From Escherichia coli (GTDB lineage Bacteria > Pseudomonadota > Gammaproteobacteria > Enterobacterales > Enterobacteriaceae): 64,000 bases of DNA. The notes beneath the pieces are model-generated. The model was not told where the DNA came from. It worked only from the letters and a program-made list of their open reading frames with translations, and made no database searches. The position numbers and the translations under genes are program-made. The stretch lies in assembly GCF_050920415.1 (NCBI RefSeq), contig NZ_CP169309.1, one strand, 5' to 3'. Shown piece by piece: positions 1,371 to 8,926 of the stretch. The stretch's first letter is position 1; each line of letters opens with the position of its first letter.

Positions 1371-1550
1371 AATGCTCTCCTGTGCTTTTGGCATGAATCC
1401 ATCAATAGTAGCAGGCTCGCAGGATTGGTTTTGTTTGCAGTCGTCACATCCCCTCTGCAACACGCAATAATTTCATCGAGGAATCCGTTGCTTCGGGCTG
1501 TTTTCGATAGTATTGATAACGTCATTATCATTATTTTATCGAGGCCAGAC

Positions 1551-2066
1551 ATGTCCATCCGTTTTGCCCGCAAAGCCGACTGTGCTGCCATTGCGGAAAT
1601 TTATAACCACGCCGTGTTGTATACGGCGGCTATCTGGAATGACCAAACGGTGGATGCAGATAACCGCATTGCCTGGTTTGAAGCGCGGACCATAGCAGGT
1701 TATCCGGTGCTGGTGAGTGAAGAAGATGGCGTGGTGACGGGATATGCCTCGTTTGGCGACTGGCGTAGTTTCGATGGTTTTCGCCATACCGTGGAGCATT
1801 CGGTTTATGTCCATCCTGATCATCAGGGCAAAGGTCTTGGGCGTAAATTGTTAAGCCGATTGATTGATGAAGCGCGGGATTGCGGGAAGCATGTTATGGT
1901 CGCCGGGATCGAATCGCAAAATCAGGCTTCGCTGCATCTCCACCAGTCGCTGGGATTTGTCATCACCGCACAAATGCCGCAGGTGGGCACTAAATTTGGG
2001 CGCTGGCTGGATCTGACATTTATGCAGTTGCAACTCGACGAACGCAGTGAACCGGACGCAATCTGA
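1551..2066 (+). CDS. mnaT: L-amino acid N-acyltransferase (GNAT family) MnaT/YncA
   Basis: ORF 1317..2066 (+); MnaT-like sequence begins at internal ATG 1551 (MSIRFARKADCAAIAEIYNH...); stop overlaps ydcZ start (ATGA). Confidence 0.92.
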   Translation: MSIRFARKADCAAIAEIYNHAVLYTAAIWNDQTVDADNRIAWFEARTIAGYPVLVSEEDGVVTGYASFGDWRSFDGFRHTVEHSVYVHPDHQGKGLGRKLLSRLIDEARDCGKHVMVAGIESQNQASLHLHQSLGFVITAQMPQVGTKFGRWLDLTFMQLQLDERSEPDAI

Positions 2067-2515
2067 TGAATCAGTCGCTTACCCTTGCCTTTTTGATTGC
2101 CGCAGGGATTGGTCTGGTCGTCCAGAACACGCTAATGGTGCGCATCACCCAGACCTCCTCTACCATTCTCATCGCCATGTTGCTGAACTCACTGGTAGGG
2201 ATTGTGCTCTTTGTTTCTATTTTATGGTTTAAACAAGGCATGGCGGGGTTTGGCGAACTGGTGTCCAGCGTACGCTGGTGGACACTTATACCCGGCTTGC
2301 TGGGATCTTTTTTTGTCTTCGCCAGTATCAGCGGATATCAGAATTTGGGAGCGGCGACAACTATTGCAGTACTGGTCGCCAGCCAACTGATTGGTGGTCT
2401 GGTGCTGGATATCTTCCGCAGTCATGGCGTACCACTACGGGCGTTGATCGGCCCAATTTGTGGCGCAATTTTACTTGTGGTTGGTGCCTGGCTGGTGGCC
2501 AGGCGCACATTTTAA
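2066..2515 (+). CDS. ydcZ: Inner-membrane protein YdcZ (DMT-like, 149 aa)
   Basis: ORF 2066..2515, ATG start, hydrophobic multi-TM sequence MNQSLTLAFLIAAGIGLVVQ...; coupled to mnaT. Confidence 0.9.
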   Translation: MNQSLTLAFLIAAGIGLVVQNTLMVRITQTSSTILIAMLLNSLVGIVLFVSILWFKQGMAGFGELVSSVRWWTLIPGLLGSFFVFASISGYQNLGAATTIAVLVASQLIGGLVLDIFRSHGVPLRALIGPICGAILLVVGAWLVARRTF

Positions 2516-2749
2516 TCAGAGGATGGTGCCGCCTTTGGTTAACTGTTCGTGGCGCGCTTCCATATCTTCTTTATGCTTGCGACCGTGATGGGCGATCGCT
2601 GTGCGCAGACGCTGCTGCTGGGTGTAGCGATCTTCCCGACTTAACTCCGCGTCATCGCTCAGGGCGATTAATAATTCGTTCATATGGGCAATGACGCTCT
2701 CTTCAATCGCGGCATCCACGCGCGCGATGACTTCATCCAGATGCGACAT
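2516..2749 (-). CDS. ydcY: Small protein YdcY (DUF2526), 77 aa
   Basis: ORF 2516..2791 (-); YdcY sequence begins at internal Met MSHLDEVIARVDAAIEES... Confidence 0.85.
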   Translation of the reverse strand: MSHLDEVIARVDAAIEESVIAHMNELLIALSDDAELSREDRYTQQQRLRTAIAHHGRKHKEDMEARHEQLTKGGTIL

Positions 2750-2834
2750 ACTTTCTCCTAAGCCACTTGTGAAATTTATCGATTCATCCAAATGATATAA
2801 GTCTGCGTGGTGCCGTCAAGCCAGTGCGTAAGAT

Positions 2835-3008
2835 TTAAAACAGTGAAAACAACAGCGCCACCGGGAAACTCATCGGCCATGTTGCCCCCACCAGAAAGGC
2901 GCTTAAGAAACGGATGCGTTTCTTATCGTGAGAAAGAAACCAGGTGATAAGAAATGCGATTGCTGCCATAACCGCATAAAAAACAAGCATGTGTTGATAG
3001 AGAGACAT
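2835..3008 (-). CDS. ortT: Orphan membrane toxin OrtT (YdcX), GhoT-like, 57 aa
   Basis: ORF 2835..3083 (-); internal Met MSLYQHMLVFYAVMAAIAFLITWFLSHDKKRIRFLSAFLVGATWPMSFPVALLFSLF matches OrtT. Confidence 0.85.
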   Translation of the reverse strand: MSLYQHMLVFYAVMAAIAFLITWFLSHDKKRIRFLSAFLVGATWPMSFPVALLFSLF

Positions 3009-3202
3009 GTACGGGCGTCCAGCCAGATGAATAAAACGCGCGCAAATATGCGTCATTTTTTGACGTGCATCAAGTTTTTTCACCAGTTTGAGAAAAAATC
3101 ATCAAACAGCAACTTGCCCTTATCCATCTTCAGAATGAGTATTATTGCGGATTTTCTTAACCCGTACTATACACATAGGGGCAATGATAAAAGGTGGCAA
3201 AA

Positions 3203-3298
3203 ATGAATGTTTCCAGTAGAACTGTAGTACTGATAAATGTCTTTGCTGCTGTTGGTTTGTTTACTCTTATCTCTATGAGATTTGGCTGGTTTATTTGA
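3203..3298 (+). CDS. yncL: Small membrane protein YncL (31 aa)
   Basis: Hand-translated ATG at 3203: MNVSSRTVVLINVFAAVGLFTLISMRFGWFI, stop TGA 3296-3298; below the ORF-track length cutoff; matches remembered YncL. Confidence 0.75.
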   Translation: MNVSSRTVVLINVFAAVGLFTLISMRFGWFI

Positions 3299-3697
3299 TG
3301 TAGTGATTTTGCACGCAGCACGTACTGTCAGAGAAATCACTGCTCTGACAGTACGCAAGATCATCTCATACTCTCCAGGTTTACAACATTATCCTTAATA
3401 TTTACTTCTTTTTGCTGACATCTACATTGAAATAAGTAGAAAACATCCCCCTCCTATCGTCCTTACAGACAGCTTACTGATTCAAAGGGAACTTTGTTTT
3501 CACATTTTTCTATCATCATTACTTTAGACGCGCGGGGTCTATAAATGCTTTGTACTTTCAGGGAATAAAGTAAATATAAAAAGATGGCATAAAGTTTATG
3601 CATGGCAGGATGTTTGCAACCTCCTTGAGGACGCTGTCCCATTGAAATTGCAAACCCCGCACTGGTTATCTGCCCATTTATCATGTAAAACAGACAA

Positions 3698-4507
3698 TTA
3701 TAGGTCTCTGAATATCTCAGAAAGATTGAATTTTTTATAGTCCCTCTCTTGGATATTTCCATTTGATATCAATCGATTCATCTCTTCAACAAAATAATTT
3801 ATATCATCACATTTGTTATTATCCGGAAGATCTGAATAATTATAATTCCACCACTTTATTCTCAACAATTCATCAATAATATTTGAATCAAATCTAAATC
3901 TGATTATTTTTGCAGGAACTCCTGCAACTATGGCATATGGTGGCACATCTTTGGTAACAACGGAATTGGCAGCAATAACAGCACCATCACCTATTGCGAT
4001 GCCACCTTTCAATACAACATCATTTCCTATCCAGACATCGTTTCCTATAATCGGATTTTCAGGTTTGGTAATGAATGGTTTCAATGTCCATGGCCGTTCG
4101 AACTCACTCAAGGCAAATTTATCAAATTCACCGTTATAAGTCATCATGTGAGTAGTAAAACGATTCATAGGATGATTTCCACCCATTATTTTTACATTTG
4201 ATGCAATACTACAAAATCGTCCTATATGTATATTCCCTGAAAAATGACAAGTTGGAAATGAAAATGCACCTACACTGGAAAAATTTTTTACAGGCATTGT
4301 TGAATATTCTTCAGCAATAACATTCTCTTCAATTGATATTTTGTCACCTTTTGAGAAAAGAAATAAATTCCTTTCTTTGTAAGACTTCTTCCCTTTATGA
4401 TTTAAAAATATTTTATTATCCATGCAAAATTCAAAGTGTTTTTTCGTCCACCTAAAGGTAATGGTTTTATTTTTATCTTCCGTGAATTTATATAACTGTA
4501 CGTTCAT
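3698..4507 (-). CDS. Hexapeptide-repeat (left-handed beta-helix) O-acetyltransferase, xenobiotic acetyltransferase (XAT/CatB/Vat)-like, with N- and C-terminal extensions; start codon uncertain
   Basis: ORF 3698..4507 (-), 269 aa; core ...NHPMNRFTTH...GNDVWIGNDVVLKGGIAIGDGAVIAANSVVTKDVPPYAIVAGVPAKIIRFRF is a typical XAT hexapeptide signature; strongly AT-rich unlike flanking genes; not recalled at this site in K-12. Confidence 0.8.
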   Translation of the reverse strand: MNVQLYKFTEDKNKTITFRWTKKHFEFCMDNKIFLNHKGKKSYKERNLFLFSKGDKISIEENVIAEEYSTMPVKNFSSVGAFSFPTCHFSGNIHIGRFCSIASNVKIMGGNHPMNRFTTHMMTYNGEFDKFALSEFERPWTLKPFITKPENPIIGNDVWIGNDVVLKGGIAIGDGAVIAANSVVTKDVPPYAIVAGVPAKIIRFRFDSNIIDELLRIKWWNYNYSDLPDNNKCDDINYFVEEMNRLISNGNIQERDYKKFNLSEIFRDL

Positions 4508-4740
4508 ACTAAAGACATCTACTTTTACTTATAAATTATTAGTTGAATAACGATACTCTAAAGTCTTCTATGAATCAACCATGACAGGATGAAAAATCAC
4601 CATCATACCTTTAGCGCATAATAGTCGTCTAACTTTTCCACTCGTTTTAATGTATTCATTCTTATTAATCGCCAATGACTCAAAACTTCAAACGATAGTG
4701 GCCATCATATAATTTCATATAACAGCCACTAACATTTAAC

Positions 4741-6165
4741 TTAATGTTTAACCATGACATGGCGGACGACGGTGTAATCCTCCAGCCCATAAAGTGACAT
4801 ATCCTTGCCGTAACCAGAAAGTTTCTGTCCACCGTGCGGCATTTCACTTACCAGCATAAAATGGGTATTGACCCAGGTACAACCATATTGCAGCCGTGCG
4901 CTGACACGATGCGCCCTGCCCACATCTTTAGTCCATACCGAAGATGCAAGTCCGTACTGGCTGTCATTCGCCCAGTTCACCACCTGTTCTTCATTGTCAA
5001 AGGCCGTCACGCTCACCACCGGACCAAATACCTCTTTTTGCACGATGGCATCGTCCTGTAACGCGCCAGCCAGCAGCGTAGGCGCATAGTAATAACCATT
5101 ACCCTTGCGCTTTTCACCACCGGTGATCACTTTGATGTGCCCTGTCTCTTTCGCCTCTTCTACCGCCTTGCTGACACGTTCGAGATGTGCCAGCGAACTT
5201 AACGGTCCAAGCTCCGTGGACTCGTCATCCGGCGCACCAGATTTTAACGTTGCCACTGCAGCACCGAGTTTTTCCACCAGCGTATCGTAAATACCTTTTT
5301 GCGCGTAGATCCGACAAGCCGCAGTACAATCCTGTCCGGCATTGTAATAGCCAAAAGTGCGAACACCTTCGACCACTGCTTCAATATCAGCATCATCAAA
5401 AACAATCACTGGCGCTTTGCCACCAAGTTCCATATGAGTACGCTTAATAGACGGCGCTGTATGGCTGATGATGTGCTCGCCGGTGGCGATAGAGCCCGTC
5501 AGCGACACCATCCGCACTTTGGGATGTCCGGTCAGCGGATCGCCCACTGTTTTGCCTCTGCCAAACAGCACATTAATCACGCCAGCCGGGAAGATATCTT
5601 TCGCCAGTTCAGCCAGCTTCAACGCTGTCAGCGGCGTAATTTCTGATGGTTTAAGCACTACGCAGTTCCCTGCCGCCAGCGCCGGAGCCAGTTTCCACGC
5701 GGCCATCATCAGCGGATAATTCCACGGTGCGATAGAAGCCACGACCCCCAACGGATCCCGACGGATCATTGAAGTATGACCTTCAAGGTATTCGCCGGCC
5801 GCCAGACCATTGAGGCAGCGCGCCGCCCCGGCGAAAAAGCGAAAGACATCGACAATCGCCGGAATTTCATCATTGAACGCACTATGCAGCGGTTTGCCAC
5901 AATTACGGGACTCCAATTCGGCAAAAACCTGACCATTTTCTTCAATAACATCGGCCAGTTTCAGCAGGCATTCCGCACGCGCTTTCGGCGTGGTTTGCCC
6001 CCATTCGGCAAATGCTGCATCTGCCGCGCGAACAGCAGCATCCACCTGCTCTGCGGATGCCTCGGCAATCTCCAGTAAAACGTCCCCCGTTGCCGGATTA
6101 TAGACAGGCTGTTTTTCCCCTTCGCCGCTAACCAGTTCTCCGTTAATCAGTAACTTATGTTGCAT
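4741..6165 (-). CDS. patD: Gamma-aminobutyraldehyde dehydrogenase PatD (YdcW), 474 aa
   Basis: ORF 4741..6165 (-), [29 protein letters not shown]..., aldehyde dehydrogenase family. Confidence 0.95.
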
Positions 6166-6186
6166 AGCATATTCCTGTATCAGTGG

Positions 6187-6981
6187 TTATTGACCATTGT
6201 CGCCTTCGCGGGTTAGCCACCAGGCCCCCAGGATCGGCAAGGTTGTTACCAACATAACCAGCAGTGCCACCACGTTGGTTACCGGTACATCACGTGGTCG
6301 CCCAAGCTGATTGAGCAACCACAACGGTAACGTTCGTTCATGACCTGCCGTAAAGGTCGTCACGATGATTTCATCGAACGACAAGGCAAACGCCAGCATT
6401 CCTCCTGCCAGTAGCGCCGAACTGAGATTCGGCAACACCACGTAGCGGAAGGTTTGCCAGCCATTGGCCCCAAGATCCATTGACGCCTCAACCAGACTCC
6501 AGGAGGTACGGCGAAAACGGGCGATGACATTGTTAAACACCACCACTACGCAAAAAGTCGCATGACCGACCACGATGGTGAAAAATCCCGGCTCCAGATT
6601 GATGGTTTTAAAAGCAGTTAATAGCGCCAGACCAGTGACAATGCCCGGCAGCGCAATGGGCAGCAGCAATAGCAATGAAATGGCGCTTTTACCGAAAAAG
6701 TCCCGACGCCACAGCGCAGCAGCGGCCAGTGTCCCTAATACCAGCGCAATTAATGTCGCCAGCGCCGCCACTTTAAGTGACAGCGTCACGGCTTCAAGAA
6801 TATCACTACGCTGTGCTGCCACGCTAAACCAGCGCAGCGTCAGGCCTTGCGGTGGAAAACTAAACGCTGCATCTTCGGTATTAAAAGCATAGGCGGCGAT
6901 AATCAGGATGGGAAAATGAAGGAAAACCACGCCGCCCCAGGCCGCCAGTTTAAGGAAAAACGGTGCGCGTTCAGAGTGCAT
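6187..6981 (-). CDS. ydcV: ABC transporter permease YdcV
   Basis: ORF 6187..6981 (-), 264 aa, multi-TM permease; in operon ydcSTUV-patD. Confidence 0.92.
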
Positions 6982-7912
6982 CGAATGCTCCCAGACGTTT
7001 CACGAACGCCAGGTACAGTGCGATGAGAACAATCGGCACCAGGGTGAATGCCGCAGCCATCGGCATATTGCCAATCGCCCCCTGCTGGGAATAAACCATA
7101 TTGCCGATAAAATATCCTGGAGGGCCAACCAGCTGCGGAACGATAAAATCGCCCAGTGTGAGTGAAAAGGTAAAGATAGAGCCAGCGGCAATACCCGGGA
7201 TCGCCAGCGGCAGCACCACATAGCGAAAGGTTTGCCGTGGACGCGCGCCAAGATCAGCCGACGCCTGCAACAATGACGGCGGCAAACGCTCAAGCGCCGC
7301 CTGCACGGGCAGGATCATGAACGGCAGCCAGATATAGAGAAACACCAGAAAGCGCCCCAGCCCGGAAGTTGACAACGTGTTACCGCCCACCGCGGGTAAT
7401 GTAAGGAACGCTGTCAGCAGTGGTTCCAGCCCCAGATGTTGTAAAAACCACTGCGCCACGCCATCTTTTGCCAGCAATAAGGTCCAGGCATAGGCTTTTA
7501 CGATATAACTCGCCCACATTGGCAGCATCACCGCAATATAAAAGAACGCTTTCATTTTCCCGCAGGTATAGCGCGCCATATACCACGCCATCGGAAAAGC
7601 CAGAATGGCGCTGGCGATAGTGACAGCCACAGCCATGGTTAGCGTGCGGAGGATGATGTCGTAATTCGCCGGATTAAACAGCGCACGGATATTCGCCAGC
7701 GTCAGTTCTGGCGTTACCGACATGGTGAAATCGTCAAAGGTATAAAAGCCCTGCCATAACAACGTCAGGAGTGAACCAAAATAGACAATGCCAAACCACA
7801 TCAGCGGACCAAGCAGCAGCAAAAACAGCCCCAGTCCCTGTTTCCGCCAGAAGAAACCTGACACCTTACCCAACCCTGGGCGCGCAGGTGATTGCAATAC
7901 GTTCATCGCCAT
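6971..7912 (-). CDS. ydcU: ABC transporter permease YdcU
   Basis: ORF 6971..7912 (-), 313 aa, multi-TM permease; 11-nt overlap with ydcV. Confidence 0.92.
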
Positions 7913-8926
7913 TCACCTCTCCTCAACCAGCGGCACCATCACATCGCGCGACCAGGAAACCATCACCTGTTGTCCGGGCGTGAGCGTGGCAGGCAGTTCT
8001 TCGCCTGTCATATTGGCCTGACTCACCAGCAGTTTTTCACCGCCATTCAGTCTCAGTTCAAAACGGGTCGCCGCGCCCTGATACTGCACCGCCTGGATCG
8101 TGCCATTAACTTGCACTTCGCCGGGGGTGTTGAGGCGGATATGTTCCGGTCTCAGGGCAAAACTGCCTATCATGCCGCAAAGATTCTCGGCCATTAGCGG
8201 CTCAAAAACGTTGGATGTCCCGACGAATCCGGCAACAAACGGCGTGCGCGGACGCATATAGAGATCGCGCGGGGAATCGACCTGCTCAATACGACCGTTG
8301 TTGAATACCGCAACACGATCGGACATCGATAATGCCTCGCCCTGATCGTGGGTGACGAAAATAAAGGTGATGCCAAGAGACTGTTGTAGCTTTTTTAGCT
8401 CCAGTTGCATCTGCTCACGCAGCTTAAGATCCAGTGCGCCGAGCGGTTCATCCAGCAGCAATACGCGCGGTTCATTCACTAACGCTCTGGCAATGGCAAC
8501 CCGCTGACGCTGACCACCAGAAAGTTGTGACGGTTTACGTTGCTGTACAAATCCGAGCGCCACTTTCTCCAGCGCCTCTTGCGCCATTACGTGTCGCTGT
8601 TTTTTATCCACCCCTTTGACCATCAGCCCATAGGCCACGTTGTCAAGAATCGACATATGCGGAAAAAGCGCGTAGTCCTGGAAAACGGTATTCACGTCCC
8701 GCTCCCACGGTGGCAGATTGCTGGCGGGTTTACCAAAGATAGATATAGTCCCGCCGGAAAGCTGTTCGAATCCAGCAATCAGGCGCAGGCAGGTGGTTTT
8801 GCCGGAGCCAGACGGCCCCAGCATTGAGAAAAACTCACCATCTTTTATCGCAATACTGACACCATCTACCGCGCGCACATCACCATACAGTCGCGATACG
8901 TTGTCAAACTCCACTGCGTACGTCAT
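7913..8926 (-). CDS. ydcT: ABC transporter ATP-binding protein YdcT
   Basis: ORF 7913..8926 (-), 337 aa; Walker A GPSGSGKTT, ABC signature LSGGQRQR. Confidence 0.93.
   Translation of the reverse strand: MTYAVEFDNVSRLYGDVRAVDGVSIAIKDGEFFSMLGPSGSGKTTCLRLIAGFEQLSGGTISIFGKPASNLPPWERDVNTVFQDYALFPHMSILDNVAYGLMVKGVDKKQRHVMAQEALEKVALGFVQQRKPSQLSGGQRQRVAIARALVNEPRVLLLDEPLGALDLKLREQMQLELKKLQQSLGITFIFVTHDQGEALSMSDRVAVFNNGRIEQVDSPRDLYMRPRTPFVAGFVGTSNVFEPLMAENLCGMIGSFALRPEHIRLNTPGEVQVNGTIQAVQYQGAATRFELRLNGGEKLLVSQANMTGEELPATLTPGQQVMVSWSRDVMVPLVEER

Follow-up and report, generated by a model that had tools for sequence, protein, structure and literature searches.

A conserved FNR-type box at the predicted promoter of ortT, an orphan GhoT-type toxin gene of Escherichia coli

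This study concerns ortT, the gene for a small GhoT-type membrane toxin, within a 64,000-nucleotide stretch of an Escherichia coli chromosome (contig NZ_CP169309.1), which as a whole is called the window below. The feature is a core gene, inherited vertically in E. coli and in most Enterobacteriaceae, that encodes an inner-membrane peptide, and no antitoxin for it, protein or RNA, is adjacent or was found in trans. We consider it very probable that the best overall explanation joins this identity and orphan status to quiet expression in place of an antitoxin. The gene would be kept quiet at the level of expression through a weak promoter of the sigma-70 family (TTGATG-17 bp-CATATT) and a ribosome-binding site of poor quality, with an FNR operator placed over the -35 hexamer and the spacer, centered at about -28.5, in a geometry suited to occlusion. 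On a more speculative reading, which we hold to be less likely than not, active FNR, under anaerobiosis, would shut the promoter, and loss of the FNR cluster driven by O2 or nitric oxide (NO), together with stress signals, among them guanosine tetraphosphate (ppGpp) and alternative sigma factors, would license expression. As ortT and its orphan status are already known from experiments published in 2015 and from standard annotation, they add nothing alone; the conserved FNR operator as a candidate antitoxin substitute is the only lead here with some novelty.

Identity and conservation of ortT

The open reading frame (ORF) translates to MSLYQHMLVFYAVMAAIAFLITWFLSHDKKRIRFLSAFLVGATWPMSFPVALLFSLF, a product of 57 amino acids for which RefSeq gives the name "ortT: orphan toxin OrtT" at the same length. 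Of 5426 complete E. coli genomes, 5415 match a 1.1-kb query around the gene, and the identity to strain MFDS1022581 is 100%. The protein matches Pfam family PF10753 (Toxin_GhoT_OrtT, formerly DUF2566) with an E value of 8.3e-28 and a score of 96.9 bits (cut-off, 22.1); the match spans profile positions 1-55 of 55, beginning at residue 4 of the 57-amino-acid form, and this full-length match above the gathering threshold places the product within the family. Alignment gives 57/57 identities with K-12 OrtT and, gap-free, 36/57 (63%) with K-12 GhoT (E 8e-27), so that the full identity to the former versus 63% to the latter, together with the patD context, identifies the gene as the orthologue of ortT. 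A preliminary description of this stretch had named the product as OrtT of the GhoT type and proposed the GhoT/OrtT alignment as its check, with dissimilarity counting against it; the alignment bears the name out, and the coordinates and gene names given there are exact.

The DNA from yncL through ortT, the whole 194-bp intergenic region included, is identical to that of MG1655. As both the protein and the intergenic DNA are the same, experiments in K-12 are directly applicable to this locus. The peptide has two hydrophobic segments around a basic HDKKRIR loop; the Kyte-Doolittle 15-residue mean reaches 2.7 at most in the first of them and about 1.4 in the other, and it is lowest at HDKKRIR. 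Transmembrane segments were predicted at residues 6-26 and 34-54 by Islam et al. (PMC4344625).

The 57-codon frame is intact in 81 of 81 orthologues, counting the window and 80 further loci drawn from about 20 genera; the amino acids are conserved, and third codon positions are free to vary. This pattern among the orthologues marks ortT as a genuine coding gene on which purifying selection acts, rather than an ORF that arose by chance. Phe38 varies among natural OrtT orthologues, with V, A, and I also seen, and the TWP(M/I)SFPVAL motif at the C terminus hardly varies across the OrtT lineage. This motif may be a more informative functional signature than Phe38.

Published function of OrtT

The function of the K-12 protein was described by Islam, Benedik, and Wood (Toxins 2015; PMC4344625), who renamed YdcX as OrtT, "orphan toxin related to tetrahydrofolate." They found that induction of ortT stopped growth and lysed 99.99% of cells, with membrane damage visible by electron microscopy and a 27-fold drop in adenosine triphosphate (ATP), and production of OrtT raised antibiotic tolerance. 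A mutant with ATG changed to ACG was harmless, and because the start codon is required, OrtT acts as a protein; the substitution F38R weakened its toxicity. A deletion mutant showed more growth and respiration under trimethoprim and sulfamethoxazole. The ortT mRNA, which responds to inducers of the stringent response, went up with trimethoprim, with mupirocin, with serine hydroxamate, and with RelA, and heat shock raised it 2-fold (PMC4344625). Cells were not rescued from OrtT by YdcY, by GhoS, by clones of the intergenic regions upstream and downstream, or by a genomic library of about 3x coverage (PMC4344625).

Further phenotypes have been published since. The gene is induced as persisters appear (bioRxiv 310961), an ortT mutant is hypersensitive to antimicrobial blue light (PMC10782963), and induction inside macrophages has been reported (PMC11951105). 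In a Pantoea strain, a plasmid-borne copy of ortT aids survival in acidic contaminated groundwater, with a fitness of -1.7 on its loss (PMC11467524).

Search for a protein or RNA antitoxin

A GhoS query (98 amino acids; PDB 2LLZ) found no homologue in the 64-kb window, where the best tblastn match has an E value of 0.39, and had a match within 4 kb of ortT in 0/80 species, as surveyed by tblastn in 80 orthologous ortT loci with 4-kb flanks. A ghoS remnant upstream of ortT was considered and rejected, as tblastn and blastn searches with the K-12 ghoST operon matched only ghoT/ortT. An adjacent GhoS-type endoribonuclease (PF11080; ferredoxin-like fold), the mark of a type V system, is thus not present at ortT.

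No neighbor travels with ortT. In the same survey, ydcY is beside it in 5/80 loci, all Escherichia, and yncL in 26/80, from Escherichia, Citrobacter, Salmonella, Intestinirhabdus, Raoultella, and one other Enterobacteriaceae bacterium; of the 53 loci in which tblastn gave no yncL match, only 1 has a divergent small hydrophobic ORF. Upstream, patD is found on the same strand, no more than 4 kb away, in 67/80 loci and in the window, and the downstream neighbors vary by genus (large convergent ORFs, a hydrolase-like gene, ATP-binding cassette [ABC] genes). A conserved small partner gene in other genera was also sought and rejected, the neighbors being variable and single-linkage clustering of ORFs too noisy. 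The model of YdcY from AlphaFold 2 is a two-helix hairpin with a predicted local distance difference test score (pLDDT) of 83, and the sequence has no significant match among PDB chains (best E 0.49). A GhoS-like fold for YdcY was rejected, as its best Foldseek match in the PDB has an E value of 0.97 and GhoS (2LLZ) is not among the 50 matches listed.

For an RNA antitoxin, an Rfam search of positions 1500-5000 returned only a chance microRNA match (E 0.08), far below the gathering score, and the promoter scan gave no promoter-like consensus on the + strand opposite or beside ortT. Synonymous variation is not suppressed along ortT in the 81 orthologues. The RNA fold of 3038..2949 has an energy of -12.8 kcal/mol and a z-score of +0.89 versus shuffled sequences, and translational sequestration in the ortT leader was rejected because this fold is no better than the shuffles. 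On the + strand, a weak terminator-like hairpin with a T-run (3036-3053) coincides with the -10/discriminator block of ortT, and the conservation of that block probably explains it. A pairing antisense or nearby small RNA, as type I membership would entail, was therefore not found at ortT within the window. The preliminary description had held that ortT has no adjacent antitoxin, that OrtT is known to lack a cognate GhoS-like partner, and that ydcY and yncL are not antitoxin-like, and it had suggested searching the flanks for an antisense RNA or a GhoS-like fold; the searches by tblastn, Rfam, promoter scan, and Foldseek found none, the published experiments agree (PMC4344625), and the helical hairpin of YdcY and the rare adjacency of both genes fit the same description.

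A conserved FNR-type box and predicted promoter

The 130 nucleotides (nt) 5' of ortT were aligned across 80 distinct orthologous sequences, and one conserved block stands out from surrounding DNA that is unalignable. The block contains an FNR-type palindrome (Table 1), which is found with a match of at least 8/10 at 54-60 nt before the ATG in 79/80 sequences: 37 are perfect, 29 match at 9/10, and 13 at 8/10. The background for matches of at least 9/10 is 18/2967 200-nt windows (0.6%) at the same loci. The half-sites are nearly invariant and the N4 spacer and flanks drift, and because the half-sites are fixed while the spacer drifts, the block carries the signature of a protein-binding site and not that of recent ancestry. 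The box is the most conserved noncoding element at ortT. An FNR consensus site is thus present in the ortT promoter region; membership of ortT in the FNR regulon is unproven.

The left half of the box coincides with a -35-like hexamer, TTGATG (3073..3068), and the -10-like hexamer CATATT follows within a block in which GCATATT has near-maximal information (79-sequence anchored profile) and GCATA starts 15 nt past the box center in 75/80 sequences. This promoter was missed by the promoter scan, as it scores 8/12 against a threshold of 9/12. We infer that the ortT promoter is of the sigma-70 family, with -35 TTGAT(G/C), a 17-bp spacer, and -10 CATATT, and an FNR dimer at about -28.5 should then occlude RNA polymerase. 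A GGA/GAG core is present at -17..-5 in only 43/80 orthologues. Class II activation by FNR at -41.5 was weighed and judged less likely than occlusion, as it needs a -10 element at GTTTT(A/T), which lacks a conserved A2/T6 pattern.

The same alignment bears on which of the two divergent genes the box serves. It keeps its distance to ortT where yncL is absent, as in Cedecea, where patD ends only about 137 bp upstream of ortT. As the distance is fixed even in species without yncL, ortT rather than yncL is the likely target of the box.

Published regulatory data on the yncL/ortT spacer

When these results are set beside published binding data, the box falls on a known site of FNR occupancy. A chromatin immunoprecipitation (ChIP)-chip peak for FNR at "ydcX," with the motif AAAACTTGATGCACGTCAAAAAAT, was listed by Grainger et al. 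(PMC1802558, Table 2), and a yncL/ydcX peak is present in all FNR ChIP datasets of Myers et al., who predicted the same 14-mer (PMC3688515, Tables S5-S7) and whose peak value there is above those at ompW, fnr, and fdnG. Both studies reported this in vivo occupancy on DNA identical to that of the window. Myers et al. called the FNR target at yncL/ydcX "indistinguishable," and found oxygen-dependent expression of yncL only in an hns stpA mutant (PMC3688515). The site resembles their categories 3-5, promoters bound by FNR with no detected expression change, in that a strong peak sits on a near-consensus TTGATGCACGTCAA; unlike those promoters, the ortT site is fixed relative to the start codon in 79/80 species, and this fixed spacing argues for a function, as far as a phylogenetic footprint can.

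Other factors meet in the same DNA. Regions bound by H-NS and IHF cover the yncL/ydcX locus (PMC3688515), the sigma-70 peaks of the same study include one in the spacer, and a peak for the RpoS holoenzyme, obtained by systematic evolution of ligands by exponential enrichment (SELEX), lies in the yncL/ydcX spacer (Shimada et al., PMC5493296). By the tables of these two sources (PMC3688515, Tables S1, S3, S4, and S11; PMC5493296), the 194-bp spacer (3009-3202) is bound by five factors, FNR, IHF, H-NS, sigma-70, and RpoS holoenzyme, and it is an unusually crowded control region for two genes of tiny membrane proteins.

A link to a physiological signal is hinted at by the study of Mehta et al. (PMC5320621), in which YdcX was 11.85-fold up, among the 50 most induced genes, in an anaerobic, nitrate-grown, NO-accumulating mutant of uropathogenic E. 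coli. The cyo and sdh genes were induced with it, and inactivation of FNR by NO was suggested by the authors to account for part of the response (PMC5320621). The induction of YdcX in this culture is an indirect pointer to FNR-dependent transcription.

Distribution and origin of the orphan form

Orthologues of ortT occur in Escherichia, Salmonella, Citrobacter, Enterobacter, Kosakonia, Lelliottia, Leclercia, Phytobacter, Cedecea, Buttiauxella, Pantoea, and other genera. GhoS homologues form 47 clusters among 5.8 billion proteins, and the named ones are all from E. coli or Shigella; the named proteins closer to GhoT than to OrtT (at least 72% identity) are all from E. coli or E. fergusonii. GhoS and GhoT proper thus appear restricted to Escherichia, Shigella being named too, and ortT spans Enterobacteriaceae, a distribution seen within the limits of a word-based protein search. 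The reading that follows draws on this distribution rather than on a rooted tree. As ortT is widespread and GhoS/GhoT narrow, the orphan form looks older, and it would be parsimonious to see the antitoxin-less ortT as the widespread, vertically inherited form and GhoT/GhoS as a narrow later addition. If so, it would follow that OrtT is not a GhoT that lost its antitoxin.

The comparison with GhoT supports close kinship and a different mode of control. GhoT shares with OrtT the family PF10753, its length, the two hydrophobic segments, and the conserved F38, and membrane damage and depletion of ATP have been reported for both (PMC4344625). However, ghoT is cotranscribed behind ghoS, whose RNase product cleaves ghoT mRNA, whereas ortT has no ghoS nearby; coexpression of GhoS gave no relief of OrtT toxicity, and the two toxins respond to different stresses (PMC4344625). 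The ortT gene carries two GCU sites and ghoT none, and the GC content is 45% for ortT versus 35% for ghoT.

No member of the GhoT/OrtT family was found in 50,697 phage records. Plasmid matches come almost only from nonmobilizable Pantoea megaplasmids of about 0.5 Mb, which make up 78 of 95 plasmid records (H35-H52, L078-L080), and the ortT-family genes of these megaplasmids still carry an FNR-type box (L079, TTGATCTGGATCAC). Several E. coli "plasmid" matches are records of 4.7-4.9 Mb that look like mislabeled chromosomes. Assignment of OrtT to a defense or phage family was rejected: there is no PADLOC match, and weak PHROG matches probably reflect hydrophobic composition. In Phytobacter massiliensis (L054, 4175-4447), a second ORF of the GhoT/OrtT family lies directly after ortT on the same strand, with the core MDLYLKMLVFYAVMAVLSAIATWFLSKETRTMKTLSACLVGATWPISFPVALAFSLF; here a toxin gene that lacks an antitoxin has been duplicated in tandem.

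Neighboring genes and the acetyltransferase islet

The gene order at the locus is curA, mnaT, ydcZ, ydcY, ortT, yncL, a CatB-related O-acetyltransferase gene, and patD, and the features are collected in Table 1.

Table 1. Features at and around ortT in the window
Feature	Position	Strand	Basis or remark
ortT (ydcX, b1445 orthologue), coding sequence	2835..3008	-	57 codons + stop; ATG at 3008, stop 2837..2835; ORF translation
GC-rich discriminator-like stretch and inferred short 5' leader	3009..3044	-	Weak Shine-Dalgarno-like GGA, no stable structure
-10-like hexamer CATATT	3045..3050	-	17 bp 3' of TTGATG, within GCATATT(G) block; inferred core promoter
FNR-type palindrome TTGATGCACGTCAA	3060..3073	-	9/10 to TTGAT-N4-ATCAA; center 58 nt before ATG
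ydcY (DUF2526)	2516..2749	-	Pfam PF10735, E 1e-46
Sigma-70 promoter-like TTGACG-16-TATCAT, between ortT and ydcY	2792..2819	-	Promoter scan, 10/12
yncL, 31-amino-acid small membrane protein, divergent from ortT	3203..3298	+	NCBIfam NF000537 YncL, E 1.8e-20
AT-rich strain-variable islet between the 3' ends of yncL and patD	3402..4740		About 1.3 kb, GC 28-38%, absent from K-12
CatB-related hexapeptide-repeat O-acetyltransferase, 269 amino acids	4507..3698	-	Pfam Hexapep match; RefSeq "CatB-related"

The promoter-like site between ortT and ydcY points to ydcY being driven by its own predicted promoter. A separate sigma-D promoter for ydcY was predicted by Islam et al. (PMC4344625), and the published anaerobic sigma-70 ChIP-seq peaks (PMC3688515, Table S1) include one near the ydcY start. 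Outside Escherichia, the position of ydcY-ydcZ-mnaT holds a pair of large, convergent ORFs, about 720 and 580-610 amino acids long, seen in Salmonella, Citrobacter, Intestinirhabdus, Pseudescherichia, and others (L008, L004, L009, L044, L066, L029, about 4200-8170), and as other genera carry these ORFs there, the ydcY side of the locus is lineage specific. The two large ORFs may correspond to the Salmonella srfC/srfB genes, which they appear to resemble.

On the other side, the window differs from the K-12 locus, with which it shares OrtT, the upstream intergenic DNA, and the neighbors yncL and ydcY, in that the acetyltransferase islet separates yncL from patD. The islet is markedly AT rich, with flanks of 51-57% GC, and the preliminary description had called it strain variable, which the survey of genomes confirms: it is found at a coverage of at least 80% in 1142/5426 E. 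coli genomes, mostly at about 91% identity. Only 8 genomes carry it at 95% identity or more, so the allele here is rare. The acetyltransferase falls well short of the NCBIfam cut-offs for the resistance enzymes Vat, CatB, and ApmA (Vat, 126.7 bits versus 300), and a role in resistance is for that reason not established. At its left junction the islet carries a degenerate copy of the patD-end sequence (ACATTATCCTTA versus ATATTATCCTTA in K-12). In some strains an IS1A element lies between yncL and the acetyltransferase gene (E. coli WP7-S17-ESBL-01, L084 1347-2044; matches H13-H15), with ortT, ydcY, and yncL intact.

Just 3' of the yncL stop codon, at 3321-3355, lies a perfect inverted repeat whose 13-bp arms, CGTACTGTCAGAG / CTCTGACAGTACG, enclose a loop of 9 nt. 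K-12 has it as well, where yncL and patD converge on it, and to go by this position it is probably a bidirectional terminator; having no T-run, it was missed by the terminator scan. The patD-yncL pair is listed by a published tool as a convergent transcriptional overlap (PMC12288877).

Discussion

Three alternatives concern what the gene encodes and whether a partner has been overlooked. That the true product is longer, either an 82-amino-acid ORF from GTG 3083 or one of the 77- to 97-amino-acid forms of some pipelines, is exceedingly improbable: the frame upstream of the ATG is open to GTG 3083 and many database entries hold N-terminally extended versions, but the 82-amino-acid form was rejected because it would start 5' of the conserved promoter and FNR box, in a region with indels and near-zero conservation among orthologues. 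The start of the Pfam domain within the 57-amino-acid form, the loss of toxicity on mutation of the ATG (PMC4344625), and the length annotated by RefSeq speak against it as well. It is very unlikely, too, that ortT is paired with an adjacent gene, whether with ydcY as a protein antitoxin or with divergent YncL as a membrane-level antagonist. Such a pairing could be argued from the same-strand arrangement of ortT and ydcY, 85 bp apart with no terminator-like site between them, from the intergenic control region shared by yncL and ortT, and from the constructs of Islam et al. (PMC4344625), which carried only intergenic regions and left YncL itself uncloned. However, coexpression of YdcY left OrtT toxicity unreduced (PMC4344625), its gene has a promoter-like site of its own, and its helical hairpin finds no significant fold match; ortT stays intact in every orthologue, with either neighbor adjacent in a minority of loci and a divergent small hydrophobic ORF at a single locus lacking yncL. 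The ydcY antitoxin reading is largely refuted. We find it equally hard to credit that ortT is a type I-like toxin silenced by a cis-antisense RNA or a trans-acting small RNA. OrtT is like the type I toxins Hok, TisB, Ibs, and Ldr in being a small, hydrophobic inner-membrane peptide whose expression dissipates the membrane potential and ATP and promotes persistence, the + strand hairpin could terminate an antisense transcript, and a small RNA encoded outside the window is the possibility that is left. Those toxins, however, have one transmembrane segment and OrtT two, and the cis or trans antisense RNAs and structured leaders typical of them were not found at ortT: no relevant Rfam family appears between 1500 and 5000 at an E value of 1 or less, no + strand promoter-like consensus was seen, the free third codon positions leave no conserved overlapping RNA detectable, the 5' region folds no better than shuffles, and the hairpin overlaps the conserved -10/discriminator block. 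The cloned flanking intergenic regions were, moreover, without effect on toxicity (PMC4344625).

A different objection concerns the word toxin, which could be a label earned by overexpression, with OrtT being primarily a conserved membrane protein for redox, NO, or envelope stress. We regard this as rather unlikely, and yet it accommodates a number of observations. The gene is a single-copy core gene under purifying selection, most Enterobacteriaceae have patD upstream of it in the same orientation, and it is unlinked to phages, mobilizable plasmids, and defense families; its FNR box is conserved and occupied in vivo. Loss of the gene is harmful under blue light (PMC10782963) and in Pantoea in acidic groundwater (PMC11467524), and its transcript rises in the NO-accumulating culture (PMC5320621) and reportedly in macrophages (PMC11951105). 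On the other hand, faster growth of the deletion mutant under trimethoprim is what would be expected on removal of a growth-braking toxin, F38R, which disarms GhoT, also weakens OrtT, and no alternative molecular function has been proposed.

The account favored here, an orphan toxin gene held quiet by its promoter, has its own weak points, and several observations weigh against it. Its regulatory part is one that we infer: the geometry at -28.5 is predicted from a phylogenetic footprint, and the conserved block is equally open to reading as a promoter of the sigma-32 type (CTTGAT ... cGCATATT), with CTTGAT as in dnaK P1, a reading to which the "predicted sigma-H promoter" of Islam et al. may correspond. 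The "ydcX" peak of Grainger et al. was not seen in transcriptome data (PMC1802558), and yncL/ydcX showed no FNR-dependent change of expression in anaerobic glucose minimal medium (PMC3688515, Table S9). The toxicity data all come from overexpression induced by isopropyl-β-D-thiogalactopyranoside (IPTG), and the antitoxin library covered the genome only about 3-fold with 622-bp inserts, so that an antidote in trans was not rigorously excluded (PMC4344625).

It can be speculated that the orphan state is ancestral and normal for the family, the FNR operator, through occlusion of the promoter, being the conserved control device and GhoT/GhoS a later, AT-rich derivative that added an RNase antitoxin. 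We hold this proposal tentatively, as one that is somewhat doubtful but worth stating beside the distribution of the two genes.

The puzzle posed by ortT is how a cell can safely carry the gene for a lytic peptide without its antidote. In the FNR ChIP maps, the ortT site has stood as an unexplained peak without a detected change in expression, and the FNR footprint over the ortT promoter, traced through about 80 species, joins those maps to the work on toxin-antitoxin systems. The resulting hypothesis is likely to be of modest interest, chiefly to specialists in toxin-antitoxin systems and small proteins. It offers an experimentally testable answer to the puzzle, in which O2- or NO-gated occlusion of the promoter would take the place of an antitoxin.

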